A stretch of DNA of 24,000 bases from an uncultured Gammaproteobacteria bacterium (GCA_964365755.1 CAYIRD010000001.1:3781-27780); one strand, 5' to 3'. Positions 2 to 20,676 are shown, counted from the first letter of the stretch. Translations and numbers: made by a program. The notes: a model not told the origin generated them from the sequence alone.

Positions 2-1075
2 GACGCAACTTTTGTTTCTTTGTCAGGCGTTCATATATTAAGTCAAAATTCAAAAGGTGTTGTTGCAATTTCTGCACCCAATGGAGAGATAGGTCCCCAG
101 GACGTTCAAAGAGTTTTAGAGGCTGCTGGCGCTATCTCTACTCCCTCCACAACTACAATTCTTCACGTTCTTCCAAAGACATTTACAGTTGATGGAGAAG
201 GGGGGATTAAAGATCCAGTAGGGATGACTGGAGTAAGACTTGAAGTTGATACTCACATTATTACTGCAAATTCCGTTTCTGTAAAAAATATCCAGAGAGT
301 TCTTGAACAGGAAGCAGGCGTTGGTGTTTCTCAAGTTGTATTTTCGGGTCTTGCATCATCACTTTCAATTCTTACAGAGACAGAACGCGAGCTAGGCGTA
401 GTTTTAATCGATATTGGAGCAGGTATTACAAACATTTGTATATATGTTGACGGTGCCCTTTCTTATTCTTCTGTAATACCGATTGGCGCGCGTCATATTA
501 CAAATGACCTTGCAATTGGTCTTAGAATTTCACTTGAAAGCGCAGAAAAGATTAAGCTTTATCTTTCAAAGAGATATGGTAAGAAGCACAATGAAGATGA
601 GAAAGTAGAAGAAGAGACGGGCGATGAGCTGGATTTGGGAGGACTTCATTTGGTTGAAGAATTAAAAAAGGTCTCTCAAAAAACATTGGTGGACGGAATA
701 ATTAAACCCCGATTAAACGAATTATTCACATTTGTAGGTATTGAGCTTAAGAAAAGCGGATTTGCAACACAGACTCCGGCAGGAGTCGTTATTACTGGGG
801 GAGGTGCAAGAACCGCTGGGGCGCAGGAAAGCGCAAAAAGAATGCTCTCAATGCCGGTGAGAATAGGGATACCTGCTAATATTACGGGCTTGATAGATGA
901 TGTTGAGAACCCGGCCTTTGCAACATCCGTGGGTCTTCTTTTCTATGCTCGCGGTTTTCAAGGTAGACAAGAAAGTTCATTTTTCTCAGGAATTATGCGT
1001 CCTCTCAACCTCAACTTCACCCGCGGCCTCCTTGGTTCTGTCACCAAACTAATCAAGACATTTTTACCAAAATAA
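2..1075 (+). CDS. ftsA: Cell division protein FtsA, C-terminal ~357 aa; the 5' end is off the left edge
   Basis: The frame is open from nt 2, with no stop before the listed TTG at 20. Actin-fold ATPase motifs typical of FtsA are present: 'VLIDIGAGITNICIY' and 'GVVITGGGARTAGAQESAKRMLSMPVRIGIP'. The C-terminal amphipathic 'LLGSVTKLIKTFLPK' resembles the FtsA membrane-targeting helix. Confidence 0.9.
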   Translation, partial: DATFVSLSGVHILSQNSKGVVAISAPNGEIGPQDVQRVLEAAGAISTPSTTTILHVLPKTFTVDGEGGIKDPVGMTGVRLEVDTHIITANSVSVKNIQRVLEQEAGVGVSQVVFSGLASSLSILTETERELGVVLIDIGAGITNICIYVDGALSYSSVIPIGARHITNDLAIGLRISLESAEKIKLYLSKRYGKKHNEDEKVEEETGDELDLGGLHLVEELKKVSQKTLVDGIIKPRLNELFTFVGIELKKSGFATQTPAGVVITGGGARTAGAQESAKRMLSMPVRIGIPANITGLIDDVENPAFATSVGLLFYARGFQGRQESSFFSGIMRPLNLNFTRGLLGSVTKLIKTFLPK

Positions 1076-1111
1076 CCCACAAAGCAAATTAGATTGATAT
1101 AATAAGTACTC

Positions 1112-1140
1112 TTGAACTATAGGCTCAATAATGGTATACT
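1112..1140 (+). promoter_or_regulatory. Sigma70-like promoter for the repeat-protein operon (TTGAAC-17 nt-TATACT)
   Basis: -35 TTGAAC at 1112-1117, a 17-nt spacer, and -10 TATACT at 1135-1140. Only 9 nt separate the -10 from the ATG at 1150, and no Shine-Dalgarno lies between them. This implies a leaderless or near-leaderless mRNA. Confidence 0.4.
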
Positions 1141-1149
1141 CCAGCCACA

Positions 1150-2457
1150 ATGAAAGAGCGTGTCTCTTCTTATGGCTCAGCTTCGGAACAAGCTCAAATT
1201 CCAATTCCCCGCGACAAGCGAGGCAGAATTCAGTGGAGATTACTAAAAGGCGATGTGAATCAGTTAAGAAGTGTGATTGAATTTCATGCTTCTAGTTTAA
1301 TCAGTGAAGGATCCCCGCTGAATAGGGAAGCTTTTAAAAAAGCTGGTCTTCATAGCATTGATGCTGCGATTACTCGATATTATCCAGATGGAATGCTAGG
1401 TTTAAAGATAAACCTCGGATTACAACCCGACAAAAGGCCCAAATCTTATTGGACAAATGAGACAATAGAGGAGGAGACTAGAATTTTTTTGGAAGGTAGA
1501 GCTGAAGGTAAAAATAGGTTAACTCAAAGATTGCTGCAAGGAAACGGAAGGTCAGATTTAGCATCAGCAATAACGAATCATTACCCGGGTGGAATGTACG
1601 TACTTAGAGAGAGACTCGGATATACCAACGAACGAAAACCAGTAGGCTACTGGACTCAAGAGAAAATTGAAGAGGAAGCCAGAGCGTTTTTCGAGCAAGA
1701 AGGAGAGTTAACTCAAAGCCTTTTGTTTCAAAAGGATCGACAAGATTTGAGTACTCAAATTAAACACTATCCGGGAGGAGCCACACAATTAAGAATTAAA
1801 ATAGGAGCAAAAATTTTAAGAAAAAATGGGTATTGGACAGAAGAACAAATAGAAAGTGATACCTCACAATTCTTGCAAGAATATGATGGAATAACAGAAA
1901 ATCTACTCACAATTCATAAAAGACAAGATCTTTTAGGGGCTATTCGTCAGTATTATCCTGGAGGGTTAATAAGATTGAAAGAGAGATTAGGCTTAATCCC
2001 TAAGAATAAGCCTGTTGGATACTGGACTACTGAAAGAATAGAAGAGGAAACCTTAGCTTTTTTGAATCAATTTGGAATACTAACCCCTGGAGAATTAAAA
2101 AAGAATGGAAGGCAAGACTTAATAGGAGCAATAAATGAACACTATCCCGGAGCCTTTACTAAATTGAAAGAACATTTAGGGATCGGGCCGGACAGGAGAT
2201 CTAATGGTCACTGGAGAAATCCTAAAAATGTAGAGGAAGAGGCCCGAATCCTTTTGGACAATGGTTATTCTATAGCAAATAAAGATCTAAGAGCAGAGCA
2301 TTCGGGTTTTATATCCGCTGTTAGGAAATATTATCCGGGAGGCTTAATTGCTTTGAGAGAAAAACTTGGAATTGCGAACGGAGAGAGATTAATTTTAATT
2401 TCTCCGGATGAAGCGAATGAACAATTGAGGAGGCTTTTGGAGGAAAAAGATGAATAA
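1150..2457 (+). CDS. Tandem-repeat protein paralogue 1 (435 aa, 6 repeats) with conserved C-terminal tail ISPDEANEQLRRLLEEKDE; function unknown
   Basis: Long ORF. The repeat-initial Trp falls at aa 29, 101, 168, 229, 292 and 355. The unit consensus is 'GYWTxExIEEEARxF...G.LT...L....RxDL..AI...YPGG...LKE+LGL'. The N-terminal motif is 'PRDKRGRIQW'. Confidence 0.85.
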   Translation: MKERVSSYGSASEQAQIPIPRDKRGRIQWRLLKGDVNQLRSVIEFHASSLISEGSPLNREAFKKAGLHSIDAAITRYYPDGMLGLKINLGLQPDKRPKSYWTNETIEEETRIFLEGRAEGKNRLTQRLLQGNGRSDLASAITNHYPGGMYVLRERLGYTNERKPVGYWTQEKIEEEARAFFEQEGELTQSLLFQKDRQDLSTQIKHYPGGATQLRIKIGAKILRKNGYWTEEQIESDTSQFLQEYDGITENLLTIHKRQDLLGAIRQYYPGGLIRLKERLGLIPKNKPVGYWTTERIEEETLAFLNQFGILTPGELKKNGRQDLIGAINEHYPGAFTKLKEHLGIGPDRRSNGHWRNPKNVEEEARILLDNGYSIANKDLRAEHSGFISAVRKYYPGGLIALREKLGIANGERLILISPDEANEQLRRLLEEKDE

Positions 2458-3799
2458 GGAAAGATCACAAATGACTGGCGAGCAATACTTTTTTTCAGAA
2501 TTACCCCGCAATAGAAGAGGTATCCGCTGGAGCGTTATTCCAGAGGCGAACAGGGAATTAATTATCGAAGGGGAAGCGAGAAAAATATACACTGAGACAG
2601 GAAGATTAAATAAAGGTGCATTTGAAGAGACAGGGAGACAAGATATAATTGGGGCAATTACTCTATATTATCCTGGAAGACTTACAGGTTTAAAGAAAAC
2701 CCTTGGGTTAACTGTACCTGCTACCAGCATACCCATTCAAAGTAGTCAGGAAGAAGATTTTATTGTTAGAGACGCAGGGGGAAGAGTTTTGTGGTCTAAG
2801 ATGGCGCAAGATCAAAGAATGAGGGTAATAGAACAAGAAGCCTTAAGTTTTGTCCAGTCTGGACACTTCACAGATAGTGAACTACGAACAAGAAATTATG
2901 GATTGTTAATGGCTGCAAAAACTTATTACCCTAATGGTATATTAGGTGTTCGAGAAAGGTTAAATTTAAAAGCCAAAAAGACTCCAAAGGGTTATTGGAC
3001 TTTAGAGAAAATAGAAAGAGAAGCAAGAGAGTTTCTTAGTACATATGGAGTAATATCGAGACGTGTTTTGTACCAACATAATCGTGGAGACTTAAGCGAG
3101 GCAGTTAAATCAAAATTTCCAGGTGGTTTTGTAGCGCTAAAAGAGAGACTTGGTGCGGTTCAAGCTAAACCGGGCGGGTTTTGGACAAAAGAAAGAATTG
3201 AACAAGAAGCCCTAGCTTATTATAAAGAGCGTGGTTTTTTAAGCGCAAGACATTTAATAAAAAATGGTCGAGGAGATCTAGCTATGGCAATTTCGCAGAA
3301 TTATCCTGGGAGGATGACGAAACTAAAAGAAGCTCTGGGATTAGACCCATTGCGGAAGGATAATTATTGGACTCAAGAGAAAATAGCAGAAGAGGCAAGA
3401 AAGTTTTACGAAACCGAAGGAGTTTTAACGGCTAAAGCACTGTATAGGATGGGTCGTTCCGACCTGGCATCGCAAATTAGTAGGTCTTACAAAGGAGGAT
3501 ATTTAGCGTTGAAGAGAGAATTGAGAATAGAATTAAGTAAAAGACCTGATGGATATTGGACTCCCGAAGCAATTGAAGCTGAAGTAAGAAATTTTTTAGA
3601 TAATGAAGGGACAATAAGCAGTGGCGTACTACATAGAAAAAAACCAGCCCTATATGCAGCAATAAGGCTTCACTATCCGGGGGGAAAATTAGCGCTTGAA
3701 TCTAAGCTTGGAATTATTAGGCAAGAAACAGAAATGACTGTTTCGCCGGATGAGGCGAATGAACAATTAAGAAGACTTTTGGAGGAAAAAGATGAATAA
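2450..3799 (+). CDS. Tandem-repeat protein paralogue 2 (449 aa, 6 repeats) with C-terminal tail VSPDEANEQLRRLLEEKDE; function unknown
   Basis: The ATG at 2450 overlaps the upstream stop in ATGAATAA, and GGAGG at 2439-2443 lies 6 nt upstream. It has the same repeat consensus, with N-terminal 'PRNRRGIRW'. Confidence 0.85.
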   Translation: MNKERSQMTGEQYFFSELPRNRRGIRWSVIPEANRELIIEGEARKIYTETGRLNKGAFEETGRQDIIGAITLYYPGRLTGLKKTLGLTVPATSIPIQSSQEEDFIVRDAGGRVLWSKMAQDQRMRVIEQEALSFVQSGHFTDSELRTRNYGLLMAAKTYYPNGILGVRERLNLKAKKTPKGYWTLEKIEREAREFLSTYGVISRRVLYQHNRGDLSEAVKSKFPGGFVALKERLGAVQAKPGGFWTKERIEQEALAYYKERGFLSARHLIKNGRGDLAMAISQNYPGRMTKLKEALGLDPLRKDNYWTQEKIAEEARKFYETEGVLTAKALYRMGRSDLASQISRSYKGGYLALKRELRIELSKRPDGYWTPEAIEAEVRNFLDNEGTISSGVLHRKKPALYAAIRLHYPGGKLALESKLGIIRQETEMTVSPDEANEQLRRLLEEKDE

Positions 3800-5657
3800 A
3801 GAATTCGAAGTCAGAACAGACCAACAATTTCAGAATCAGCAATCGTTAGATACTCCTCGAGACAGAAGGGGAAGAATAGACTGGCGCGCTTTAAACAGTA
3901 ATCCGGAACAACTTGTCGCGTATGTAGATTCAGAAATCGAGAGATTTCTTGCCGAGGGCCACCAGTTGTCTTATGTAGGGTTAGTTAAAGGCGAGAGAGA
4001 TTTTCTATACACCGGAGTTAAAAGATATTACCCAGGAGGCATGGATACATTAAAAGAAAAATTTGGGATTGTTAGTGTTACGAAACCAGGGCGGTACTGG
4101 TATGATTCACACAATATTGAGGAAGAAGCGAGAAAGTTGGCAGCAAAGGGTAGCGATTTATCACAACGTAGCCTTAAAGAATTTAGTATGCAATCTATGA
4201 GTTCTGCAGTTAGAAGATACCCAGGAGGTTTGCAAGCCCTTAGAGAAAAATTAGGCATCGCACAAGTAAGAGTTGCTAGAGGATATTGGCAAGTGCCTGC
4301 AAATATTGAGAAGGAGGCAAGAGCATGCCTTGGGAAAGGAATTGATATATCTCAGAAAAGCTTGAAAAAAGCAGGCTTATCCTCATTATCTTCAGCAATA
4401 GCACAAAAATATCCCGGCGGCACGAGCGCTTTAAGAGAAAAATTAGGATTACCAATAAGACGCCCAAATGGATACTGGCAGAATCCGGTAAATGTTGAAC
4501 ATGAAGTTTCAAAAATAATCGATGAAGAGGGAAATTTAACAGAGCCAATAATTAATAGACACAATCCTTCATTGATGCCCGCTATTTATAAACACTATGA
4601 AGGAGGATTGGCTGCGTTGAGAGCTAAATTTGGCCTAAAAGAGACAAAAAAAAAGACAGGATATTGGACAATGGAACAGATAGAATATGAGGCAAGAAAA
4701 TTTTACGAGGAGAGAGGACTATTAACCGGACCGGCTTTGATCACAAACAATAGACAGGACTTGTTGGGGGCTATCCAGAGCAAATACCCAGGAGCTCTGA
4801 TTGGTATTAAAAATAGACTAGAAATTCATTCTGTCAGGCCAAAGGGCTACTGGACACCAGATAACATTGAGAGAGAAGCAGCAAAATTTATAGCTCAACA
4901 TGAAGATTTAAACCATGTTTTGTTAAGGTCCAATAATTTAGCTGGATTCGCTTCTGCAATTTCAAGCTTTTATCCCGGAGGCATGAGAGGTCTACGAAGA
5001 AAACTTGGCTTAGAGGTAAAATCAAGGCCTCTTGAGTTTTGGACAATCGAGAATATAGTAGGAGAAGCAAGAAAAATTTATGAAACTGAAGGAGATTTAT
5101 CGCAAAAAATATTAGTTAGGCTGAGAAATCTTTCTCTTAATTACGCTATTCAAAAGAAGTATCCGGGTGGGATGGATGGATTAAAAAGAGATATAGGGAT
5201 TAGATCTAGCGAAAGACCTAATGGCTATTGGACTCCCGAAACTATTGAACAAGAAGCTAAAAAATTCTATTTAACACACGGGACATTGGACTCAAAAAGC
5301 ATGCGCGGAAAAGGTGAATCTGGCCTTTCATCCGCTATAAGCTCCAAATATCCAGGAGGTTTTAGGGCATTAAAAGGAAAATTCGGGGTTGCGATTAATC
5401 AGCGTCCTCCCAATTATTGGGTTAATCCTGAAAACATCGAACTTGAACTACAGAGATTTCTAGAAGCGGGAAATACATTTTCGGATGAAGATCTCAAAAG
5501 AGCGGGTTTGACAAGCTTGCGGTATGCAATAAGTGAGTATTACCCAGGAGGTATGAGTGCAATAAGAGAAAAGTATGGCCTTACAAAAGGCGAAAGGCAA
5601 GTTGTGATTTCCCCCGATGATGCGAATGAACAATTGAGAAGATTGATTGAAGATTGA
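3792..5657 (+). CDS. Tandem-repeat protein paralogue 3 (621 aa, 9 repeats) with C-terminal tail ISPDDANEQLRRLIED; function unknown
   Basis: It has the same ATGAATAA stop/start overlap and the same GGAGG as the previous junction. There are nine 'YW...YPGG' units and an N-terminal 'PRDRRGRIDW'. Confidence 0.85.
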   Translation: MNKEFEVRTDQQFQNQQSLDTPRDRRGRIDWRALNSNPEQLVAYVDSEIERFLAEGHQLSYVGLVKGERDFLYTGVKRYYPGGMDTLKEKFGIVSVTKPGRYWYDSHNIEEEARKLAAKGSDLSQRSLKEFSMQSMSSAVRRYPGGLQALREKLGIAQVRVARGYWQVPANIEKEARACLGKGIDISQKSLKKAGLSSLSSAIAQKYPGGTSALREKLGLPIRRPNGYWQNPVNVEHEVSKIIDEEGNLTEPIINRHNPSLMPAIYKHYEGGLAALRAKFGLKETKKKTGYWTMEQIEYEARKFYEERGLLTGPALITNNRQDLLGAIQSKYPGALIGIKNRLEIHSVRPKGYWTPDNIEREAAKFIAQHEDLNHVLLRSNNLAGFASAISSFYPGGMRGLRRKLGLEVKSRPLEFWTIENIVGEARKIYETEGDLSQKILVRLRNLSLNYAIQKKYPGGMDGLKRDIGIRSSERPNGYWTPETIEQEAKKFYLTHGTLDSKSMRGKGESGLSSAISSKYPGGFRALKGKFGVAINQRPPNYWVNPENIELELQRFLEAGNTFSDEDLKRAGLTSLRYAISEYYPGGMSAIREKYGLTKGERQVVISPDDANEQLRRLIED

Positions 5658-5682
5658 AACTATAGGTTTAAAATGTTAAAAT
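5654..5682 (+). promoter_or_regulatory. Possible internal promoter for the helicase-methyltransferase gene (TTGAAA-17 nt-TAAAAT)
   Basis: -35 TTGAAA at 5654-5659 overlaps the stop of the upstream gene. A 17-nt spacer precedes -10 TAAAAT at 5677-5682. It shares the string TTGAA(A)CTATAGG with the promoter at 1112. Confidence 0.3.
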
Positions 5683-5683
5683 T

Positions 5684-5703
5684 GGGCTGATTAACAGCCC
5701 TTT
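5684..5703 (+). terminator. Stem-loop GGGCTG-ATTAA-CAGCCC followed by TTT; either a weak intrinsic terminator/attenuator or a 5'-UTR hairpin
   Basis: A perfect 6-bp, GC-rich stem (5684-5689 / 5695-5700) has a 5-nt loop and a short T-tract (5701-5703). It sits in the only intergenic gap of the cluster. Confidence 0.3.
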
Positions 5704-5712
5704 CAATAAAAT

Positions 5713-8700
5713 ATGACATCAGAAATGTTAAAAGAAGGACAGCCACAGCCAGTGCAAGAAAATCACGATTCAAGAATCGCGGATTTGAATGCAGTGATTT
5801 TGAAGCCAGAAAAAATTCATGTTCTATTAAGTTTGAAACCGGGTGACCCCGGATACCCGTTTGATAATGGAGAAACATTTGAAGCAAATTATGAATCCTC
5901 AACCGATTTTGGATTGAAATATATCATGGCTAGATCTCTGCTTCAGGATGGTAAGTATGATAAACCACTTCTATTGCTTAGAAAGTTTATTCCAGCAGCG
6001 GATATAATTACTAAGCATAAAGAAGCTGAGGATCGCCAAAAGGCAGAAGAAGAAATTAAATCCGGCTTTGCCCAGGAATTGAAAGATAGATTACGGCTTC
6101 TACTTGTAGAAAAAGGACAAATTAAGCCTGGATCTGAAGAGGATAAAGATGCCCAGAAGGCTCTTATTCGCTTTGCGGAAAGAGATCAAATCCTAAGACA
6201 ACTAATGGAACTTTTACCTATCCATGTAGTAGGTGCCATCACGAGTGCTCAAATGTTTGAAAACGTAACAGACGAGGAAAAAAGAGAAAAATTACGGTCA
6301 TGGACAACTCGAGCACTCAGGCCCTATCTTGGGGATTTACTTGTTCGTAAACCTCAGGGCGATATTAATTTTCGAGATATTATAACATTGGTTCCTGCAA
6401 AGATTTTCGATGATTGGGATACTGCCACAGCGAATATTGTAAGAGATCACTTTGAAAGACTAGCGATGGGCATGTTCACAGAAAGTGAAGAAGAAGGGTT
6501 TAGTAGGCTGGAGGATGCTTTTAGATCAGAACAATCTGAATCTAAAAGGCAATTTCTGCAAGGGGTTCTTGATGAGTTTAAAGAGATTAGAGATGAAGAA
6601 ATTCCTCCAGTTTTCAAAGATCAAGTCGAGGGCTGGTTTTCCCCCACCTCACCTTTCCCATTGTTTCGTCAAAAATATTTTGTCCATGAATTCAAAAAAA
6701 CTCACAGGAAATTTTTAAACGGTGATACCGGAGCTACAAAAACGGCCTGTGCGGACCTTGCAATGGAGTCAGTTGGTGCCTCGCGCGTAACTATTTTTGG
6801 CCCAGCTAAGGCACGGAACACTTGGCCAAGAGAGGCTCGTAAGATTTACCAAGAGGACGCGCAGCCTGACGTTTTTGCTGTAATAAGCGCAAAGGATTTA
6901 GATAATCCCAGAATTAAGACAGCCAAGCAGGTTTATATATCGAGTGAATTAATGGCAAGAGCATGGTCCAACCCAGAATTGAATGCAACCATGACAGAAG
7001 CAGTCATTACTAATAGACATACAGATGGGATAATTTTAGACGAGTACGATGTTTTTCGTCATCAGAGTGCAAAGTCAACTAAGATGCTAAGGCACCTCGT
7101 AACTCAAATACAAGCTAATAACCAAGAGTTAGTACCAATGATACCTTTGACAGCAACACCTCTTTCATCATCCCTTAAAGATTTAGACATCTCGATGGCT
7201 CTTCTTTACCCTGAACGGTTCGCCTTTCCTAAGAGCAACCAAGATGGTAAATTTACTTTTAGTACTCTTGCTTTGATGGATCCAAAAATCGCTTATTCAC
7301 TTCTTTATGGCGAGCAACTTATGATTCAGTGGAGTCTTGAAGATCTTTTCGGGGAGAAAGCACCAAAACTTGATCCTAAAATAGTAAATCTTGAGATGAC
7401 TGCTTCTCAATATGAAATTTATCAATGGGTGCTTTCCCTACCTATAAGAAATCCGCTTGAGAAAATTGCTATGTTAAGAAGTGTTCTTCTTAATCCCAAT
7501 ATAATTAAAAAAACCATTAGGGAAAAGGGGTTAATACCAGAACCGGTTTATGATCCGGCAAAATTTGGGGAGCACTTGGAAGAGCTTTACAATTCATGGT
7601 GGGAATGGTTTGAAACTTCACCTGATAAATTTGAACCCTTTAGCGCCGACTGGATTGCAAAATTTGGAGATGGTCAATTTTTAATACAATTGTTTTTTGA
7701 TAATCGATTTGCGGATGGAATTGAATCGCTAGTTATGCGATACCCACACATCCGAACAGATTGGCAAGAAGCTAAATTCCCTTCTGTAAAATATGAGGCT
7801 ATCAAAAAGTTTTTGGAAAGAACAATAATTAAAACAGAAGATGGCTATGAATTCAGCCAAAAAACAATGATAGTTTCCCCTTTTCACAAAGAAGGTATTA
7901 CCAGGTGGTTTGATGATCCTTACATTAGACCGGAAGATCTTGATAATGATGCCTGGAGCTTATATGAGATGTTGCGCCTCGATTTTTCTAATTTGCCAAA
8001 TGAAGCATCTATTAACATTGATGGACAGAAATCTTTTTCAGCAAGAGACCGTGCGGCACAGGAATGGCGAGAATCAGGGATAAAGAATAACATAGTAGTT
8101 GCTTCTATGCGGTCAATTTATCAGAGTATGGATTGGGCAATTCGCGATACAGAAGATAATAAAAATATTGAAGCTATGAATGTTATATTCTTAGGCTGGC
8201 CTTGGGGATGGGATGAATTTAAGCAGATGTCTGGTCGTTTCTTGCGTCCTGGTCAAACCAAACCTGTTAATATATATATCTTAGAAACAGAGAACTCGAT
8301 TGACAGAGGGTTTAAAGACTTGGTTAAAATCAAAGACCTTCTATCGCAAATGGCTTTGGCAGGAGTTGAGCTCTCAAAAGAAGATCAAGTTTTTTTCAGC
8401 GACGCAACTTCTGCTAAAAGAATTTTAATCGAACATCCGAAAGTCGGCCAGCTTTTCCTTTACGATGCTTTTGCCAAATTAAGGGGTATGTCGGAAGAGG
8501 AGATGAGAATTGAGCTTGCCAAGGAAATTAACGGCAGAACTTTAGGATCTTGGCTTGCCGAATTTTATCTTGATGAAGGGAATGATGAATATCGAATAGT
8601 TGGAAACAACGCTGAATTAGTGAAAAATGTCGTACTTCGCGAACATCCCGAACATGTATTATCTGTTGGCTCAGGGACTTGTATTTTTGCAAGAAAAATT

Positions 8701-9624
8701 GCAAGAACCGGAATCCCAATAATAATTGATAATCTCGATATCAATCTTGAAGTATTACAGCTTGCCAAACAAAAAAATCCAGAAATAGGCAATGTTCTTC
8801 ATGAGAGTGCCACTAAGATTAGTAAAAGAGACGGAACTTATGATGCAATTGAATGTTCTTTTGTGCTCCCACTGATTAAGTTGGTTGACAATGGTAAAGT
8901 TCCAAACGATGCTACAGGTGCCGATAGAGTTAAGACATTACTTGAGATGAATCGTGTTCTTAAAATAGGTGGAACAGCAGTTCTAACATTTCCTGAAAAC
9001 TCTTTTAACGAGGAGTCTTTTGCGAGGTTTACCAAAGCTTTAACAAGGAATTTTGGTTTTCAAGTTGTTGGTCCAACAGGAGTTAGTTTTGCATCTGATA
9101 TAACTCCTAACAAAAAACTTGGATGGATTATAACTGTGAGAAAAATAAATAAACCGGATCTTTCAAATATAGATTCTGAAGATCTTATGTTCGAGACAGA
9201 CCGCGATAGAATTAGCCGTTATAAAGGCAAAAAAAATGGGGCTACCGTAAAAGTTATCGATTACCCGATTTTTGCGTCTAAGGAATTTAGGATTTATAAT
9301 CCATTAACACGTGAAGTCGCAACAAATAAAACTGATGTTGTTGATAAAATTACAGTTACTCCGCAAGAACTTGTTGAATTAATCAAGCCAAATCTTTCAG
9401 ATAGCCAAAGAGAAATTTGGGTGGAGGCCAGGCGTAAAATTGAAAGAGGACTTGATCAAAACTATTCGTTAGCAGAACAAACATTAGCTAGTATTTTTGC
9501 CCGCAGAAGGTTAGATGCTAGCGTCTGGAGTGATGAGGCAGTTAGAAAAATTCTAGATGCTGAAATAAGAAGACTAGTAAGAACATATCGCACAAGGGAG
9601 GCAGAATATGAGGGAACAATTTAG
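5713..9624 (+). CDS. SNF2-family helicase fused to a class I SAM-dependent methyltransferase (1303 aa)
   Basis: SNF2-like motifs: I 'GDTGATKT' (aa 337), Ia 'VTIFGPAKARNTW', II 'ILDEYDVF' (aa ~441), III 'LTATPLSSSLKDLDISMALLYPERF', C-lobe 'NIDGQKSFSARDRAAQEW', and VI-like 'QMSGRFLRPGQTKPVNIYIL' (aa 838). Methyltransferase motifs: motif I 'VLSVGSGTCIFARKIA' (aa 982), 'YDAIECSFVL', and 'MNRVLKIGGTAVLTFP' (aa ~1078). The ~330-aa N-terminal and ~170-aa C-terminal regions are unassigned. Confidence 0.75.
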   Translation: MTSEMLKEGQPQPVQENHDSRIADLNAVILKPEKIHVLLSLKPGDPGYPFDNGETFEANYESSTDFGLKYIMARSLLQDGKYDKPLLLLRKFIPAADIITKHKEAEDRQKAEEEIKSGFAQELKDRLRLLLVEKGQIKPGSEEDKDAQKALIRFAERDQILRQLMELLPIHVVGAITSAQMFENVTDEEKREKLRSWTTRALRPYLGDLLVRKPQGDINFRDIITLVPAKIFDDWDTATANIVRDHFERLAMGMFTESEEEGFSRLEDAFRSEQSESKRQFLQGVLDEFKEIRDEEIPPVFKDQVEGWFSPTSPFPLFRQKYFVHEFKKTHRKFLNGDTGATKTACADLAMESVGASRVTIFGPAKARNTWPREARKIYQEDAQPDVFAVISAKDLDNPRIKTAKQVYISSELMARAWSNPELNATMTEAVITNRHTDGIILDEYDVFRHQSAKSTKMLRHLVTQIQANNQELVPMIPLTATPLSSSLKDLDISMALLYPERFAFPKSNQDGKFTFSTLALMDPKIAYSLLYGEQLMIQWSLEDLFGEKAPKLDPKIVNLEMTASQYEIYQWVLSLPIRNPLEKIAMLRSVLLNPNIIKKTIREKGLIPEPVYDPAKFGEHLEELYNSWWEWFETSPDKFEPFSADWIAKFGDGQFLIQLFFDNRFADGIESLVMRYPHIRTDWQEAKFPSVKYEAIKKFLERTIIKTEDGYEFSQKTMIVSPFHKEGITRWFDDPYIRPEDLDNDAWSLYEMLRLDFSNLPNEASINIDGQKSFSARDRAAQEWRESGIKNNIVVASMRSIYQSMDWAIRDTEDNKNIEAMNVIFLGWPWGWDEFKQMSGRFLRPGQTKPVNIYILETENSIDRGFKDLVKIKDLLSQMALAGVELSKEDQVFFSDATSAKRILIEHPKVGQLFLYDAFAKLRGMSEEEMRIELAKEINGRTLGSWLAEFYLDEGNDEYRIVGNNAELVKNVVLREHPEHVLSVGSGTCIFARKIARTGIPIIIDNLDINLEVLQLAKQKNPEIGNVLHESATKISKRDGTYDAIECSFVLPLIKLVDNGKVPNDATGADRVKTLLEMNRVLKIGGTAVLTFPENSFNEESFARFTKALTRNFGFQVVGPTGVSFASDITPNKKLGWIITVRKINKPDLSNIDSEDLMFETDRDRISRYKGKKNGATVKVIDYPIFASKEFRIYNPLTREVATNKTDVVDKITVTPQELVELIKPNLSDSQREIWVEARRKIERGLDQNYSLAEQTLASIFARRRLDASVWSDEAVRKILDAEIRRLVRTYRTREAEYEGTI

Positions 9625-10144
9625 CGAACCACTTTCTCCACAAGAAAGAACAAGGCAACTTTTTTCTAAAAACTTTGATGACTTCGCGGAGAATCTTAGG
9701 GGCAAGGTTGTTGTTCTATTGGGAACAGATAAAAAAATTACATTAGATCTGGTTGAAGGATGGAATTTAGAATCAAACATGAAAACACACAAAAACTTTC
9801 TGCAACTTAATCCAGGAGACTGGGAAGCTAGCAGAATACCCATAAGGCAAATGCGTCAATCACTAATTATTGCGAAAGATGGAGACCGGGTTGGTGCATG
9901 TGCCAGAGTAGTTAGGGCTTCTTACTTTGATAATGATCAAGGACAGTTTATTCAAATGCCAAGGGAAGGCGACATTGCCAATTATTTAGGCCTTGGCGAT
10001 AACGAATTAGCAAGGCTGGTCTACATGGATGATTCGGATTCGCTGTATTTGTTACGAGGGGAACAAGGTTCACAAAATATAAGCCCCGATGAGGCAAACG
10101 AACAACTAAGAAGACTTTTGGAGGAAAGAGATAATGAGTCCTGA
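9608..10144 (+). CDS. 178-aa protein of unknown function carrying the shared C-terminal tail ISPDEANEQLRRLLEERDNES
   Basis: GGGAGG at 9596-9601 lies 6 nt before the ATG at 9608. The ORF overlaps the helicase gene by 17 nt. I recognise no domain. The tail is identical in peptide to those of the repeat proteins. Confidence 0.7.
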   Translation: MREQFSEPLSPQERTRQLFSKNFDDFAENLRGKVVVLLGTDKKITLDLVEGWNLESNMKTHKNFLQLNPGDWEASRIPIRQMRQSLIIAKDGDRVGACARVVRASYFDNDQGQFIQMPREGDIANYLGLGDNELARLVYMDDSDSLYLLRGEQGSQNISPDEANEQLRRLLEERDNES

Positions 10145-10556
10145 AGGGAGAAGAAGAGTAGAATTTACATTTAATACAAGACCTGATATTCTTGCTGGTC
10201 GTCTTATTGGAGTACGAATAAGGCTTGGTAATCAATTGGCCGAGATTGTGGGAACAGAGTGGTATCCTGCAGAAGAAAATACGAAAGGGACATATAGGAA
10301 AGTTTATGAATCAGAGCCGGGTACATTAGTCGCTACAGGATATAGAAATTCAGTCTTGCCCTTAGTTGCTGCAAAAGGCGGAGCTTGCGTTCTTATTCGC
10401 GAAATTGAGGTACGAAATCAGGAAGGAAAACTTGAAACTGTAAAAGGGCCTGGAAGAGTTGGAGAAAAATTGGGTTTGAAAAAAGGTGACGCGCGGAATC
10501 TAAGTATGGAAGATCCCCATGATTTAATATTTAGTTTGGTAGAGATCAATCGATAG
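10134..10556 (+). CDS. Truncated DNA-3-methyladenine glycosylase (MPG/AAG family)-like protein, 140 aa
   Basis: It aligns by eye to the MPG family. 'LAGRLIGV...AEIVGTEWY' matches 'LLG..L...GRIVETEAY', 'EPGTL' matches 'KPGTLYVY', 'GGACVLIREIE' matches 'GACVLLRALEP', and 'GPGRVGEKLGL' matches 'GPSKLCQALAI'. It is shorter than typical family members (about 190-220 aa from memory) and appears to lack the C-terminal segment. GGAGG at 10120-10124 lies 9 nt before the ATG. Confidence 0.6.
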   Translation: MSPEGRRRVEFTFNTRPDILAGRLIGVRIRLGNQLAEIVGTEWYPAEENTKGTYRKVYESEPGTLVATGYRNSVLPLVAAKGGACVLIREIEVRNQEGKLETVKGPGRVGEKLGLKKGDARNLSMEDPHDLIFSLVEINR

Positions 10557-10587
10557 GGATTCAATTCAATTAAAAACTAGAGTTGCA

Positions 10588-10824
10588 TTGGGGTTTTTGT
10601 GGTTGACAAAGATTGTATGGATATCATACAATATCCCCATAAATACTACAGTTAATATTTCGATTCCAACGAAATTATATAAAGATGCAAAGAGATTTGC
10701 TGCCGAATATGGATATTCATCAATGAGCGAATTAATTAGGCAAGCTTTAAGAATAGAATTATATTCTGCTCCCGAGCTTGGGAGGAAAGGTAAAGCTCTC
10801 AAGAGAATTAATAAAAATATTTAA
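10588..10824 (+). CDS. Small ribbon-helix-helix (CopG/Arc-like) protein; start codon uncertain
   Basis: 'VNISIPTKLYKDAKRFAAEYGYSSMSELIRQALRIEL' fits the strand-helix-helix RHH pattern. The only in-frame canonical-type starts are TTGs at 10588, 10597 and 10603, upstream of or overlapping the promoter-like element. No ATG or GTG lies near the domain start. Confidence 0.4.
   Translation: MGFLWLTKIVWISYNIPINTTVNISIPTKLYKDAKRFAAEYGYSSMSELIRQALRIELYSAPELGRKGKALKRINKNI
10603..10632 (+). promoter_or_regulatory. Sigma70-like promoter TTGACA-18 nt-TACAAT
   Basis: Consensus -35 at 10603-10608 and -10 TACAAT at 10627-10632. It lies inside the 5' part of the listed 10588 ORF. It could drive the RHH ORF and/or a long ftsZ leader. 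Confidence 0.4.
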
Positions 10825-10831
10825 CAACTTC

Positions 10832-10857
10832 ATTGCGCTTGCAATCAATTTTTTTTT
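10832..10857 (+). terminator. Weak stem (ATTGC-GCTT-GCAAT) followed by a T9 run
   Basis: A 5-bp stem (10832-10836 / 10841-10845) is followed by nine consecutive T at 10849-10857, just after the RHH ORF stop. The stem is short and AT-rich, so the call is tentative. Confidence 0.3.
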
Positions 10858-10876
10858 GTGATAGGATGGGTCGATC

Positions 10877-10893
10877 TTCGAACATTGTTCGAA
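10877..10893 (+). promoter_or_regulatory. Perfect palindrome TTCGAAC-ATT-GTTCGAA 10 nt upstream of the ftsZ ATG
   Basis: 7-bp inverted repeat arms with a 3-nt centre. A possible extended -10 (TGaTAGGAT, 10859-10867) lies just upstream. ftsZ has no Shine-Dalgarno. Confidence 0.3.
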
Positions 10894-10903
10894 TTATTAA
10901 ACA

Positions 10904-11998
10904 ATGTTAATAAAACCTCAGACTACTTCTTTTGCTAAAATTCGTGTAATTGGTGTTGGCGGTGGAGGAGGAAATGCTATCGGTACAATGATCTCTGACG
11001 GACAGATTAACGGTGTTGAATTTATGTCCATTAACACAGATGCCCAAGCACTTCTTAATAATCAGGCAAACATAAAAATTCAAATTGGAGAAAACTTGAC
11101 CCGCGGTCTTGGATCAGGTGGAGATCCTGAAGTAGGCGTTAAGGCAGCTGAAGAGTCTCGCGAAAAAATTAAGGAGATGCTTGAGGGTACAGATATGGTT
11201 TTCTTGACGGCAGGAATGGGCGGCGGAACGGGAACAGGAGCAACTCCCATTATTGCAGAAGTAGCAAAAGACGTAGGTGCACTAACCGTCTCCGTTGTTA
11301 CAAAGCCATTTCTCTTTGAAGGTACACGCAGAATGGTTGCGGCAGAAGAAGGAATAGAAAGATTAAAAGAGAAGGTCGATACATTAATTGTTATTCCAAA
11401 TCAGAGAATTCTTGAAGTGATAGACAAAAAATTGTCCCTTCTTGAAGCATTTAGGGTCGCTGATTCAGTTCTTAATCACGGGGTGCAAGGAATCTCCGAT
11501 TTAATAACTATCCCGGGGTTGATTAACGTTGATTTTGCAGATGTCAAAACAATTATGACAAATGCAGGATCTGCATTAATGGGAATTGGGATTGGAGTAG
11601 GTGAGAATAGAGCGCAATTGGCGGCTAGGCAGGCAACATCCTCGCCGTTACTTGAGGTCTCAATGGAGGGCGCACGTGGAGTTCTCTACAACATTATTGG
11701 GGGAACAGACCTTTCAATGTCTGAGGTCAATGAAGCATCAAAAATTATTGCATCTGCGGCAGATCCCGATGCAAATATTATTTTTGGTGCAACAATTGAT
11801 GAGAATCTTCATGATCAAATCCGCATTACGGTTATCGCAACCGGTTTTGATGAGTCAAGAAGAAAGCTTCAGGAGTTAGTCGAGAAACCGGAAGAGATAT
11901 TGGCAGAAAATGGTGACCAAGGCCCGCCATCAACGTCTCCCGAAGACGAAAAAGAATCAATCTTTGACATCCCCGCCTTTTTACGCCAAAAGAATTAA
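10904..11998 (+). CDS. ftsZ: Cell division protein FtsZ (364 aa)
   Basis: It carries 'GVGGGGGNA', the tubulin signature 'GGGTGTGA', the T7-loop region 'VIPNQRIL', an acidic disordered linker, and the C-terminal conserved peptide '[11 protein letters not shown]'. Confidence 0.97.
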
Positions 11999-12004: not shown

Positions 12005-12295
12005 CTATTTATATTCCCTGCTTGAACCAGAATGTTTGGAGAGTGCAAATAAAATAATAATTTGCTTCTTAGATTCGTCAAAATCCCAGATAATTCGAAG
12101 GTCACCAGTTATCCAGCTGCTCCATTTTTTCCCAAAATTCCGAGTATTTACTTTATGACTTTTTAAGGAAGGATAGAACGGATCGTTTTTTATTAATCTC
12201 AATACTTTTTTCGTCCGTTTTTCAAATTCTTTATTACCCTTAATTATTGATTTATAAGTGGAAGGGAACGTGCTTGCAAAATGGAGAGCGTACAT
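12005..12295 (-). CDS. Type II toxin, RelE/StbE/YafQ-family mRNA interferase-like (96 aa)
   Basis: 'PSLKSHKV...WSSWITGDLRIIWDFDESKKQIIILFALSKH' matches the RelE/YafQ-type pattern. It lies 2 nt downstream of a small RHH-type ORF, the classical antitoxin-toxin order. Confidence 0.75.
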   Translation of the reverse strand: MYALHFASTFPSTYKSIIKGNKEFEKRTKKVLRLIKNDPFYPSLKSHKVNTRNFGKKWSSWITGDLRIIWDFDESKKQIIILFALSKHSGSSREYK

Positions 12296-12297
12296 GC

Positions 12298-12558
12298 TTA
12301 AAGGCTTGCGAGATATCTATCAAGTTCTTCATCAGTTTTGATGGCTGTATATCGTCCATTTTTATAATCTTCCAATCCCTTTGCAATCACTTTTTCGGTT
12401 TCTTCATCTACTAAAGGTATATCTTCGATCTCTTTTTTATATTTTTCGGCAAGGGCAACCTTTATAATTTCGGCCTCAGATAACACACGATATTTGCTTC
12501 TCAAAAAAGCTAACACTTCAGCAAGCTCTGGTGTTTTATTTAATCTTATTTGTGCCAT
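12298..12558 (-). CDS. Type II antitoxin, RHH-type (87 aa from the ATG at 12558)
   Basis: 'MAQIRLNKTPELAEVLAFLRSKYRVLSEAEIIKVALAE' is strand-helix-helix and is followed by an acidic C-terminal region. I chose the ATG at 12558 over the listed 12594 start because a consensus promoter occupies 12566-12594. Confidence 0.7.
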   Translation of the reverse strand: MAQIRLNKTPELAEVLAFLRSKYRVLSEAEIIKVALAEKYKKEIEDIPLVDEETEKVIAKGLEDYKNGRYTAIKTDEELDRYLASL

Positions 12559-12565
12559 GCTACCT

Positions 12566-12594
12566 ATATTAGGGCATTTACTACCTAATGTCAA
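12566..12594 (-). promoter_or_regulatory. Promoter of the toxin-antitoxin operon (TTGACA-17 nt-TAATAT on the minus strand)
   Basis: The reverse complement reads TTGACA (12594-12589), a 17-nt spacer, then TAATAT (12571-12566). Seven nt later comes the ATG at 12558, so the mRNA is predicted to be leaderless. Confidence 0.55.
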
Positions 12595-12703: not shown

Positions 12704-13594
12704 GTGACTTCACCAGAAACAGACGGTAATCAAAGTCCCCAAATTGATGCTCAAAAAGAACGTGTAGGGCAAACATTATTTCAGGTAAGATTTGGCTTAG
12801 GCCCTCATACTGTCAGATTTAGTTATTGGCATGAGACGATAGTTCAGGACCTAAACATTTTTTTTCAACCCTCAAACGCAACCCAACGTAATATTTTCTT
12901 TTGTGAAGATGCTCTCGGGTCTCAAACGTATGAGAATACTTTAAAAGCTGCTTATAAGCATTACGGCAAATATTCTACAGCTTACGAATTTGCAAGATTA
13001 TATCGTCTTCGTGATGGATTTCCTCCCTCTGCAACAGTTGAAGCTAGCTATAATAGTCAACTTCGGTCCTTGCATCCGCTTGCATCTGATGGTTCTGAGT
13101 TTTTACATAAAGTGTTTGGAGTTATAGATGAGATAGTAGATAAAAATGGCATTCTAATTGATGTAGAAACAGAGAAGAGAAAAGATCCTAAAGAGCGAGA
13201 GCAAATGGAAAGAATACTCATGCAAGGACAATCCCCACGGCCAAAGTCCGTTGAGGAATTTCGTCAACATGCTATTGGATTGTGGAATATGAAGAGGGTA
13301 AGGGATAGAAAAATCACAGATGATCTTGTTGAATTATATAAAAAAGCAATTGGGAGAAACGAAGCCACAAAAGTTTATGTTTCTCTAGGACAAAATCACT
13401 CAGGCGTAAACGATCTGCTAGCTGCCAAGTTATACAAGAAACCCTCTTTCGAACCGTCAGTAACTTTGGGAGAATTTCAACCACCACGAAGAGAAATATT
13501 CCCACATGCCATTTCCCTATTAGACTTAGGAAAACCAATTTCTTCTGAGCAATGGCAGGCTTTATATGAGGAAGCCATGATGCCTCCGAGATGA
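12704..13594 (+). CDS. Hypothetical protein (296 aa); very weak motif resemblance to the Tiki/TraB/GumN/ChaN superfamily
   Basis: Long ORF behind its own promoter. 'FGLGPHTV' and 'KVYVSLGQNHSGVNDLL' loosely resemble the GTxH and GxxH motifs of that superfamily. This is unverified and should not be relied on. Confidence 0.6.
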   Translation: MTSPETDGNQSPQIDAQKERVGQTLFQVRFGLGPHTVRFSYWHETIVQDLNIFFQPSNATQRNIFFCEDALGSQTYENTLKAAYKHYGKYSTAYEFARLYRLRDGFPPSATVEASYNSQLRSLHPLASDGSEFLHKVFGVIDEIVDKNGILIDVETEKRKDPKEREQMERILMQGQSPRPKSVEEFRQHAIGLWNMKRVRDRKITDDLVELYKKAIGRNEATKVYVSLGQNHSGVNDLLAAKLYKKPSFEPSVTLGEFQPPRREIFPHAISLLDLGKPISSEQWQALYEEAMMPPR

Positions 13595-13934: not shown

Positions 13935-14387
13935 ATGATGCGCAATCAATTGGCTGTCCTGATATTAATAGCTTCTGTAGTTCTCCTAGTTCTACTAGAT
14001 AGAGGCACAAAGGTATCAGATAATTCGGTTAAAACCGAACCCGCCAAAGTCGAACCTATTCAAGGGACTGACTTCAAACAAGTAACGTTGACTGCAAAAG
14101 CCGCAGAGCGGCTCGGGATTAAAACAGTTCCGGTTCGTGAAGAAATATCAGCCAGAACGGACACTCTAAAGCTTGTTGTTCCTTACGATTCAATAATCTA
14201 CGGTCTAAACGGCGAAACATGGGTATACATAAACCCTAAATCTCTTGTTTTCGTTCGGTCTCCGATAAGTATCGACTACATAGTAGGAGATTTTGCGATT
14301 CTCTCTGAGGGCCCAACTTCTGGTACAAAGGTCGTAACAGTCGGAGTAGCACAGCTGTATGGTATAGATACAGGAATTGGGAAATAA
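13935..14387 (+). CDS. Small membrane-anchored periplasmic adaptor-like protein (150 aa), probable minimal membrane-fusion partner of the RND pumps
   Basis: It has an N-terminal TM helix 'LAVLILIASVVLLVLL'. 'AERLGIKTVPV' and the C-terminal 'VGDFAILSEGPTSGTKVVTVGVAQLYG' resemble the ends of HlyD/CusB-type adaptors. The long alpha-hairpin is absent. The gene sits directly upstream of the RND genes. Confidence 0.5.
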   Translation: MMRNQLAVLILIASVVLLVLLDRGTKVSDNSVKTEPAKVEPIQGTDFKQVTLTAKAAERLGIKTVPVREEISARTDTLKLVVPYDSIIYGLNGETWVYINPKSLVFVRSPISIDYIVGDFAILSEGPTSGTKVVTVGVAQLYGIDTGIGK

Positions 14388-14408
14388 CAAAAGAAGATTT
14401 TCTGCCCT

Positions 14409-17400: not shown

Positions 17401-17501
17401 CGGCAATTGTCATTTTTGGTGGGCTTATCACCTCGACTTACCTCACCCTCCTCGTTTTACCGGTCTTATACTTACGTTTTGGAAAAATCCACCATGGATG
17501 A
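14409..17501 (+). CDS. RND-superfamily efflux permease, paralogue 1 (1030 aa)
   Basis: The size and 12-TM layout fit an RND permease. The N-terminus 'IRSSLRLQFILLIL...PIDVYPEFNPPMVNVQTEALGLSAAEVEALVTVPLE' is typical. The TM4 'AIGVVMDDAVIGVEN' carries the Asp-Asp proton-relay pair, and 'GFLTILGIAVRNSILLISHY' is also present. Confidence 0.9.
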   Translation: MQWIIRSSLRLQFILLILAAALVVFGIRELRTMPIDVYPEFNPPMVNVQTEALGLSAAEVEALVTVPLEADLLNGVAWVDQIYSESVTGLSSIHLIFKPGTDPIRARQMVQERLTQTYALPNVSKPPTMLPPLSTTSRVMMVGLSSDKLSLIEIGVLARWNITPRLMGVPGVANVAIWGQRERQLQVQVDPEKLYAQGVTLSQVIKTTGEALWFSPLSFLESSSPGTAGWIDTPNQRLGIQHELPISEPSDLAQVVLADNTELRLGDVAKVVEDHQPLIGEAILKRGPGLLLVIEKFPGANIKEVTRRVEEALVAMRPGLTGIDIDTTIFRPATYIEKATHNLTLMLLVGTMLAILVFYFFFFEWRIALISAASMLLSLLTAGFVLYLRGTTFNTMTLLGFIIAIGVVMDDAVIGVENIYRRFHQNGKKKRSQMFVTSVILEATSELQGPLVFTTLMILLTVSPVFFMQGESGAFFQPFATSFVLAVLSSTIIALILTPVLSLTFSRAFLKRHESPLVSWLNLSLRRLLVPAFKVPKQTYIIVVVAVFVGLSVLPTLSVSLVPKFRQTDLLIKWEGPPGTSRLEMSRIINQASQELREVTGVTNVGAHLGRAITGDKVAGINSADLWISLDSQADLDIATKNIQEVIDGYPGLFHQVQTYQPKRTREALTDENETLSVRIYGHDLKVLERLGKEVRKAISGIDGVVATAEEPQVEEPQVQIKVDLKRAQAYGLKPGDIRRQATTLLSGIQVGSLYEDQKVFEVVVWGEPEIRNSLTDIRDLMIETPAFAQVPLEELAEVSIAPAPIIIKRDSVSRFLDVEARVPGRDLVSVAADIRSKLKSVEFPLEYHMEVLGASIEKQASRARMLVVIVTAAVGIFLLMQAAFGSWRLAIVSLLSLPMALVGGVLAAFLTGGILSLGSLVGFLTILGIAVRNSILLISHYQHLERLEGQTFGPKLILRGTRERLAPILATALALGLFLLPAVLFGNITGVEIVQPAAIVIFGGLITSTYLTLLVLPVLYLRFGKIHHG

Positions 17502-20610: not shown

Positions 20611-20621
20611 AGGTAAAGATA

Positions 20622-20650
20622 TTGAAAACAGCGTGTCTAGTATGTATAAT
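20622..20650 (+). promoter_or_regulatory. Promoter TTGAAA-17 nt-TATAAT
   Basis: -35 at 20622-20627 and consensus -10 at 20645-20650, 26 nt before the ATG at 20677. Confidence 0.55.
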
Positions 20651-20676
20651 GCAAAAGCTTAACAAATCAACCTAAA

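Follow-up and report, generated by a model that had tools for sequence, protein, structure and literature searches.

A conserved trio of tailed accessory proteins, an SNF2-methyltransferase hub and a mini-MPG-fold protein that fits no named system tested

Results

A six-gene block with a three-family core

We examined a 24,000-nucleotide stretch of DNA (GCA_964365755.1, CAYIRD010000001.1:3781-27780; hereafter the window) from the groundwater metagenome Hain_H51, in which six plus-strand open reading frames (ORFs) encode three tandem-repeat proteins (R1, R2 and R3), a large fusion of an SNF2-family ATPase with a class I S-adenosylmethionine (SAM) methyltransferase (the hub) and two small proteins, P178 and P140, with a reduced fold of the MPG/AAG glycosylase type (mini-MPG). 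A sequence-only reading had described these genes as a coupled cluster without named equivalent, and their arrangement is exactly as it claimed, with overlaps of 8, 8, 17 and 11 nt and a sole gap of 55 nt. Comparison with other loci shows that the conserved unit is a trio of families, namely tail-bearing accessory proteins, the SNF2-methyltransferase hub and a mini-MPG protein. This module fits no named system that we tested. The six genes are:

1150-2457, plus strand: R1, 435 amino acids (aa); six divergent HNH_repeat units (aa 31-410), pI 9.0, C-terminal tail
2450-3799, plus strand: R2, 449 aa; six HNH_repeat-type units (aa 27-424), pI 9.6, R1-type tail; start overlaps the R1 stop by 8 nt
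3792-5657, plus strand: R3, 621 aa; nine HNH_repeat-type units (aa 33-599), pI 9.5, tail variant SPDDANEQLRRLIED
5713-9624, plus strand: hub, 1303 aa; class I SAM methyltransferase joined to an SNF2-family ATPase (1299 aa in the public annotation, where the start lies 4 codons further on)
9608-10144, plus strand: P178; mini-MPG-fold domain (aa 13-145), linker and tail (aa 159-178); conserved partner downstream of the hub
10134-10556, plus strand: P140, 140 aa, pI 9.1; tail-less mini-MPG-fold protein whose TEWY aligns to TEAY of AAG (E125, Y127)

Related loci, fetched by exact-protein look-ups and two collection scans, included 16 independent loci with a hub of the long type found in the window. 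All 16 carry one to four same-strand accessory genes immediately upstream of the hub, and a P178-type mini-MPG gene directly follows it in 13 of the 14 loci with a readable downstream flank, which makes the proposed MPG-like partner a real feature of the system. The accessory proteins comprise HNH_repeat arrays and at least three other, mutually unrelated families without known domains. A second branch emerged through P140, whose best relatives (P0079, P0080 and P0081) directly follow a shorter SNF2-Methyltransf_11 hub of 1097-1122 aa. Over residues 214-1174 this short hub shares 24% identity with that of the window. An HNH_repeat-containing accessory protein lies upstream of the short hub, and its mini-MPG lacks a tail; the short-hub trio is present in loci L024 and L025/L026, with a fragment in L012. 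Occurrence in both long- and short-hub loci indicates that the trio is conserved across two deeply diverged branches. Informative names among the module-bearing genomes belong to the candidate phyla radiation (CPR)/Patescibacteria, and are of Microgenomates type for the long-hub loci.

Failure of the genes to co-occur outside this genome had been set beforehand as a refutation of the cluster. The three families do recur together elsewhere; the six genes do not form a conserved unit, because P140-type proteins are absent from long-hub loci outside the window organism and belong with the short-hub subfamily. The window locus pairs a complete system of the long branch with one more mini-MPG, of the short-branch type.

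An SNF2 ATPase fused to a methyltransferase without a DNA-type motif

Four regions can be distinguished within the hub:

5713-6654, plus strand: N-terminal region (aa 1-314); acidic, no family match; the first ~213 aa are absent in short-hub relatives
6655-8412, plus strand: SNF2 ATPase core (~aa 315-900); GDTGATKT (K343, T344), DEYD (D443, E444), TAT (T480, T482) and QMSGRFLRPGQ (Q838, G841, R842, R845)
8590-9147, plus strand: methyltransferase domain (~aa 960-1145); motif I VGSGTC, D1009 and, at the motif IV position, ECSF (family consensus DCSF); without DPPY, NPPY or PCQ
9265-9621, plus strand: C-terminal add-on; conserved beta-hairpin YPIFASKEFRIYNPLT, then a four-helix bundle; absent in short-hub relatives

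Several lines of evidence agree on the fusion. Residues 983-1090 match the Pfam family Methyltransf_11 with 38.5 bits (cut-off 21.2), and the match of SNF2-rel_dom to residues 397-575 is sub-threshold (22.6 bits; gathering cut-off 24.9), while several homologues bear precomputed PF00176 hits. Across 33 full-length homologues (34-53% identity, 1263-1484 aa), helicase motifs I, II, III and VI are invariant at K343/T344, D443/E444, T480/T482 and Q838/G841/R842, and R845 is nearly so; methyltransferase motif I (G986, G988, C990) and D1009 are kept, with G986, G988 and D1009 invariant. AlphaFold models covered residues 300-1303 (pLDDT 82.5) and 940-1303 (pLDDT 83.9). In Foldseek searches with the larger model all of the top 50 PDB matches were Snf2-family ATPases (E down to 1.2e-16, TMt up to 0.75), among them the remodellers PBAF, ISW1, Ino80 and CHD and also CSB, Rad54, Rad5 and Mot1, which agrees with a two-lobe fold carrying the SNF2-specific helical insertions. 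The smaller model matched generic class I enzymes, namely UbiG, the m7G rRNA methyltransferase Bud23 (TMt 0.74), nucleomethylin and spermidine synthases. Both enzymes look catalytically intact, and the ATPase is best read as a double-stranded-DNA translocase of SNF2 type. The methyltransferase region of none of the 33 hubs contains the DNA-type motif IV (D/N/S)PP(Y/F/W), the position being DCSF or ECSF, and the nearest folds are those of non-DNA enzymes. Both the 1303-aa fusion and its non-DNA-type methyltransferase signature, as first proposed, are thus upheld.

Members of the hub family are few, forming 33 clusters at 90% identity in 5.8 billion proteins; names among its homologues include Candidatus Daviesbacteria, Candidatus Gottesmanbacteria and Patescibacteria group. 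A tblastn search with the hub found nothing in 72,556 plasmid or 50,697 phage records. At profile level, residues 314-501 (the N-terminal ATPase lobe) match phrog_62, a 1881-position phage 'DNA helicase' family (5.6e-19), and alignments over 890-1055 model columns were obtained for a few large proteins of phages, including one with the name 'DNA methylase'.

A shared C-terminal tail that co-varies within loci

The peptide SPDEANEQLRRLLEE ends R1, R2 and P178, and R3 ends in a close variant, so that the shared C-terminal tail noticed at the outset is found on four proteins:

2401-2454, plus strand: R1 tail SPDEANEQLRRLLEEKDE; its LLEE codons, with GGAGGA at 2439-2444, form the Shine-Dalgarno (SD) sequence of R2
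3743-3796, plus strand: R2 tail, peptide identical to the R1 tail; GGAGGA at 3781-3786 forms the SD of R3
5610-5654, plus strand: R3 tail, close variant
10082-10141, plus strand: P178 tail SPDEANEQLRRLLEERDNES; GGAGGA at 10120-10125 forms the SD of P140

Over 48 nt, the tail DNA is 90-92% identical among R1, R2 and P178, compared with ~60-70% in the repeats around it; most of the differences are silent. The tail has a net charge of -4 in R1, R2 and P178 and -2 in R3, whereas the bodies of the R proteins are basic (pI 9.0-9.6). Its hydrophobic residues, as read from the sequence, are spaced i, i+4, i+7, i+8. This pattern fits a short, acidic, amphipathic helix.

Every long-hub locus has its own version of the tail, common to its accessory proteins and its mini-MPG: EANEDLDRLLEG in L021, DLD(R/K)FFL in L018, A(L/Y)..L..(Y/F)F in L016 and EAD.L(L/M)RSL in L027. 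The accessory proteins that bear a tail belong to at least four unrelated families. In a comparison of 11 loci, the tail of the mini-MPG matched the tails of its own locus at 7.0 of 10 residues and those of other loci at 4.1 of 10 (permutation p <= 5e-5), the own locus being the best match in 10 of the 11. Such co-variation within loci suggests docking of the tail on a partner from its own locus; the simplest reading is that this partner is the hub, the only invariant candidate. For a statistical coupling of tail residues to hub residues, tail class and phylogeny would be confounded at the ~12 loci to hand. Since short hubs lack the first ~213 and last ~130 residues and are accompanied by a tail-less mini-MPG, those regions of the long hub are candidate receptors; the C-terminal add-on, with its hairpin and four-helix bundle, could form the tail-binding platform.

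Mini-MPG proteins

The 140-aa protein had been described as a truncated, MPG-like base-excision module, and the family evidence agrees that it is a truncated and divergent MPG-fold protein. An exhaustive HMMER search of 1.84 billion representatives gave 59 relatives; 36 of 58 family members match Pur_DNA_glyco at E <= 1 (best 3.6e-11), and the family profile matches human AAG (1EWN, 1BNK) over the N-terminal two thirds of the fold (E 0.0014). Neither P140 nor P178 reaches the Pfam threshold for Pur_DNA_glyco (PF02245), and P140 alone, searched against PDB sequences, gave nothing but spurious matches to ABC transporters.

The claim that the 178-aa protein is domain-less, or only a tail, did not hold. 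It carries a mini-MPG domain and is a paralogue of P140: an alignment of P178 homologues from seven loci matches the P140 family in hhalign with 99.1% probability (E 1.6e-18, 124 columns), and the hidden Markov model (HMM) of each family finds the other window protein (1.8e-10 and 5.8e-5). The homology is visible by profile methods only, BLASTP of P178 against P140 giving nothing. A word-indexed homologue search with P178 found only itself, and its relatives were taken from the fetched loci.

The full catalytic and binding set of AAG (E125, Y127, H136, Y159 and R182 regions) is not present in these proteins. P140 has the glutamate and the tyrosine. Neither P140 nor P178 has the H136 loop or the last third of the AAG fold, and in the hub-linked P178-type proteins the position of the catalytic Glu125 is E, Q, R, D or Y. 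This variability makes a conserved glycosylase activity of the P178 type doubtful, and a base-flipping or lesion-binding 'reader' role may be the more economical interpretation.

Two side observations concern this family. In L012 (431-1205) a tail-less P140-type gene (P0080) follows a short-hub C-terminus, and a convergent fragment opposite it matches the P178-family HMM (E 2.9e-19), so genes of both mini-MPG types stand side by side at one further site at least. The P140 search also returned P0094, a 2604-aa protein (E 4e-10) with no single aligned stretch and many Trm112p-like repeats, which is probably a compositional or repeat artefact and not a relative.

Repeat accessory proteins

R1, R2 and R3 are, as proposed, three paralogous tandem-repeat proteins, with 6, 6 and 9 units (21 in all) of ~63 aa and the consensus rp.gYW.t.e.IE.EArkFl...g.Lt...L...gr.dL..AI...YPGG..aLkekLGl. 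When R1-R3, P178 and P140 were scanned directly with Pfam and NCBIfam, nothing rose above noise (HAMP_2, PYRIN, part of PFL_1563 and, at E 0.025, a hint of a 3mA-glycosylase); in PHROGs the repeats match an unknown family. Among 43 homologues of R3, five (P0065, P0069, P0070, P0074 and P0075) score above the Pfam gathering score for HNH_repeat (PF18780; 'Homing endonuclease associated repeat' in Pfam), and an HMM built from the window's own 21 units picks the same segments in R3 homologues that Pfam labels. On these grounds we assign the units of R1-R3 to divergent HNH_repeats by transitive homology. The R1 and R2 ends and the R2 and R3 beginnings share one overlapping junction (...GGAGGAAAAAGATGAATAA...), and from this the three genes probably arose by tandem duplication that included the gene junction. 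Ahead of the first full unit, the N-termini of R1, R2 and R3 (window 1150-3900) have a common motif, P-R-(D/N)-(K/R)-R-G-(R)-I-x-W, which may be a degenerate half-unit or a separate functional element.

Comparison with named systems

The module was compared with systems that it partly resembles. PADLOC returned hub matches only, a partial one to mad2 and a weak one to DrmD; literature searches produced no description of this gene set. Together with the empty plasmid and phage searches, these results are in keeping with the earlier statement that the cluster has no named equivalent.

Like DISARM, the window has an SNF2-family ATPase and a methyltransferase in a multigene accessory locus, and the hub matches DrmD weakly (E 0.004). 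However, homologues of DrmA, DrmB (DUF1998) and DrmC (PLD) are missing at the window locus, the methyltransferase is fused to the ATPase and is not of the DNA N6 or C5 type, and the locus adds repeat adaptors, a mini-MPG and a putative docking tail. The PglZ, BrxC and PglX methyltransferase components of BREX were not detected by PADLOC or Pfam. The methyltransferase region of the hub matches positions 256-422 of the 492-position PADLOC profile for mad2 (E 1.4e-11), the N6 DNA methyltransferase of MADS (mad1-8; bioRxiv 10.1101/2023.03.30.534895), but the match is partial and no other mad gene is present.

A more conceptual likeness may be drawn to Type I and Type ISP restriction-modification enzymes (EcoKI, LlaGI), in which a single machine both translocates and methylates and the specificity subunits can be exchanged. 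The window locus differs from these in having no nuclease domain, no NPPY methyltransferase and no HsdS-type target recognition domain, and its ATPase is SNF2-like by fold. In sum, the module lacks the components that define DISARM, BREX, MADS and Type I/ISP restriction-modification.

The individual parts have relatives of their own. P140 and P178 share with AAG/MPG the blocks FFDQ..vA..LLG, TEAY, PG..Y, GACVLLRA and GP..l..ALgI in the N-terminal two thirds, but are ~135-180 aa long against ~200-220, lack the H136 loop and the C-terminal third, and vary at the Glu125 position. R1-R3 have the repeat family in common, by transitive homology, with the HNH_repeat arrays of homing-endonuclease-associated proteins, but have no attached HNH nuclease, contain 6-9 units each below Pfam detection and end in the tail. 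Mobile elements encode large polypeptides that likewise join an SF2 helicase to a methylase (phrog_62; DarB-like), with methylases of DNA types; these share no sequence with the hub at tblastn level and are without a mini-MPG or tailed adaptors. By analogy, the tail might be likened to dockerin-cohesin pairs or encapsulin cargo-loading peptides, where short C-terminal tags target one partner and one tag can be borne by unrelated proteins of an operon; there is, however, no sequence or fold relationship between these and the window tail.

Genomic context

In the window, the 9.4-kb module lies within 1076-10903 and splits ftsA from ftsZ, two genes that are normally adjacent:

20-1075, plus strand: ftsA, cut by the window start; left flank of the insertion
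10904-11998, plus strand: ftsZ; right flank of the insertion

The GC content is 0.37-0.42 over the six-gene block, against 0.41-0.43 for the genes on either side. The window contains no tRNA or Rfam element, and no integrase was found around the ftsA-ftsZ insertion; in the search for flanking direct repeats no family paired both insertion flanks, and only short imperfect inverted repeats matched. A cell-division role suggested by the position between ftsA and ftsZ was rejected, this context being found in no other locus.

Neighbourhoods differ among all loci, and none is common to two. In L015 (1658-20095) the long-hub module lies between type IV secretion system (T4SS) genes (pilin, TrbC, VirB4-like, TraC-like) and genes for a relaxase, a coupling protein and a serine recombinase, and the element also encodes an M23 peptidase, which makes the L015 module cargo of an integrative conjugative element (ICE). 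A tyrosine integrase adjoins the module in L016. L002 lies beside a MazE-Fic pair upstream of rpoB, and L027 beside secA and type IV pilus genes. In L025/L026 (3317-12147), a 575-aa HNH_repeat protein, a 1122-aa SNF2-methyltransferase and a 144-aa mini-MPG stand between ruvC/DUF1848 and ruvA-ruvB. Here again the module divides a set of housekeeping genes, or its position may hint at a connection with repair. The metagenome-assembled genome that contains L015 is titled 'uncultured Gammaproteobacteria'. This label is doubtful, as the hubs of L015 and the window share 50% identity and the named homologues of the latter are from Daviesbacteria.

Gene coupling and flanking features

An SD sequence precedes every internal start of the six-gene block, which supports translational coupling. 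Those of R2, R3 and P140 are GGAGGA within the 'LLEE' codons of the preceding protein's tail (TTTTGGAGGAA), set 5-8 nt before the next start (2439-2444, 3781-3786 and 10120-10125). The tail DNA is therefore doubly constrained, as peptide and as ribosome-binding site, and this may explain its high nucleotide identity. The proposal that the six genes form one operon is consistent with these SDs and with the lack of a convincing plus-strand terminator, but the promoter and terminator scans did not rise above shuffled controls.

The best promoter-like site of the region (TTGACA, 18 nt, TACAAT; 11/12) lies downstream of P140 at 10603-10632. It is followed by a small ribbon-helix-helix (RHH)-like frame (window 10603-10824; ...NISIPTKLYKDAKRFAAEYGYSSMSELIRQALR...) that matches RHH_1 at E 6e-4 (20.0 bits; cut-off 20.5) and has no canonical start codon downstream of the promoter-like site; it could be the decayed remnant of an antitoxin or regulator on the right-hand border of the insertion. 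Immediately downstream of ftsZ, on the minus strand (12005-12594), a 96-aa YafQ-like toxin ORF (E 4.6e-5, below the Pfam cut-off) comes directly after a 98-aa ORF without a family, a probable toxin-antitoxin pair. A 296-aa ORF at 12704-13594 (GTG start) had no Pfam, PHROG or other family match. Further on, GC rises to 0.43-0.49 (13935-23604) from 0.37-0.43 upstream, in a region where two AcrB-family resistance-nodulation-division (RND) transporter genes lie in tandem (14409-17501 and 17407-20610; these coordinates overlap by 95 nt) ahead of HlyD-like and ABC ATPase genes. A pair of complete RND pumps is noteworthy in a reduced CPR genome.

Discussion

All three families of the conserved trio have DNA-related pedigrees, which leads us to propose that the machine works on DNA, and carriage on mobile elements at a different site in each genome points to a role in genetic conflict. 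Our preferred reading, which we hold tentatively and short of outright confidence, is that the locus encodes a mobile hub-and-adaptor machine acting on DNA and probably serving genetic conflict, its function as yet unproven. The tail would be a docking peptide by which adaptors and mini-MPG plug into one site on a protein of their own locus; the hub is the simplest choice, with the site perhaps in the N- or C-terminal regions that only the long branch has. The basic HNH_repeat arrays would bind DNA and choose where the hub is loaded, the hub would translocate and methylate a non-canonical target, and the mini-MPG would act as a base-flipping reader or, in some members, as an excision module. 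The role of the whole might be defence or competition between mobile elements.

A number of observations weigh against this reading. The conflict or defence role is deduced from the mobile and variable context only, and several loci have no mobile-element genes nearby; all loci come from metagenome-assembled genomes or metagenomic contigs. We found no nuclease, toxin or other recognizable effector within the module and, by Pfam scan, no effector domain in the accessory proteins of other loci; PADLOC, too, returned no system match and nothing on the five proteins other than the hub. A DNA target for the methyltransferase is likewise put in question, since in the models its fold resembles small-molecule and rRNA enzymes such as UbiG and Bud23 and no DNA methyltransferase was among the top 50 structural matches of the 940-1303 model. 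The mini-MPG proteins show the missing parts of the AAG fold and the variable Glu125 position described above. Finally, the link between the tail and the long-hub regions is a correlation, and an imperfect one, as accessory proteins of short-hub loci hold a related SPE(D/Q)...L..F motif inside a longer C-terminus.

The alternative that survives best, although we think it unlikely, is an accessory module for DNA repair or genome maintenance, in which a translocase resembling CSB, Mfd or Rad54 would bring MPG-type lesion recognition to alkylated or stalled DNA, with the repeats as DNA clamps. The glycosylase fold of the mini-MPG, the repair translocases CSB, Rad54 and Rad5 among the structural matches of the hub, the short-hub module between ruvC/DUF1848 and ruvA-ruvB and the lack of a toxin or nuclease all speak for it. 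Repair would not readily account for a module found within an ICE and beside an integrase, in a context that differs per genome, nor for the strong variation in number and family of accessory proteins and the locus-specific tails. The rarity of the family (33 clusters in 5.8 billion proteins) is also unfavourable, as are the non-conserved catalytic glutamate and a fused methyltransferase with no obvious repair role.

Recruitment of a remodeller and methyltransferase by sequence-specific repeat proteins, in a nucleoid-remodelling or gene-regulatory complex whose methylation target is perhaps protein or RNA, seems to us improbable. Chromatin remodellers are indeed the closest folds to the hub ATPase, and the methyltransferase folds most like enzymes that do not act on DNA; R1-R3 are basic, and some relatives give sub-domain matches to ARID, HTH and Sigma70_r3. 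However, the constant MPG-fold partner, mobile carriage and rapid adaptor turnover would all be left unexplained.

We give marginally less credence still to an establishment or anti-restriction module of conjugative elements, in which hub and partners, in the manner of helicase-methylase fusions from phages and plasmids, would protect or modify the DNA of the element on entry. DarB-type methylase-helicase proteins act in anti-restriction, the L015 module is embedded in an ICE, and the phrog_62 match of hub residues 314-501 and the 890-1055-column alignments of large phage proteins are suggestive. Against this, the hub finds nothing in plasmid and phage records by tblastn, the DNA amino-methyltransferase motif is missing in 33 of 33 hubs and most loci have no transfer genes nearby.

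That the tail is instead a secretion or translocation signal, for example for a T4SS coupling protein, with repeat proteins and P178 as exported effectors, is very improbable: the tail does sit at the extreme C-terminus of otherwise unrelated proteins and one locus is inside a T4SS-encoding ICE, but tails are present and co-vary even where no secretion gene lies within 10 kb of the locus, and no neighbour other than the hub is invariant.

Within the preferred hub-and-adaptor reading, the suggestion that a methyl mark is read or excised by the MPG-like protein is speculation. One specific version, which we regard as a long shot, is a nuclease-free 'write-and-excise' form of restriction. Adaptors would load the SNF2 motor on chosen DNA, the fused methyltransferase, with the m7G enzyme Bud23 among its nearest folds, would deposit a destabilizing methylpurine (such as m7G or m3A), and the tethered mini-MPG would recognize or remove the base, so that abasic sites inactivate the invader; the locus-specific tail would keep the parts private.

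If the hub-and-adaptor architecture is true, it would represent an undescribed way to build a DNA-tracking machine in bacteria, in which a remodeller-type motor is joined to a non-DNA-type methyltransferase, and interchangeable adaptors and an MPG-fold module are addressed to it by a private, co-evolving peptide. The co-varying tail is a directly testable protein-protein code. The orphan HNH_repeat would gain a functional context, and a repair glycosylase fold would be seen to be reused as the fixed partner of a translocase. Such a machine would also add to the sparse inventory of conflict and genome-maintenance machinery in the CPR.

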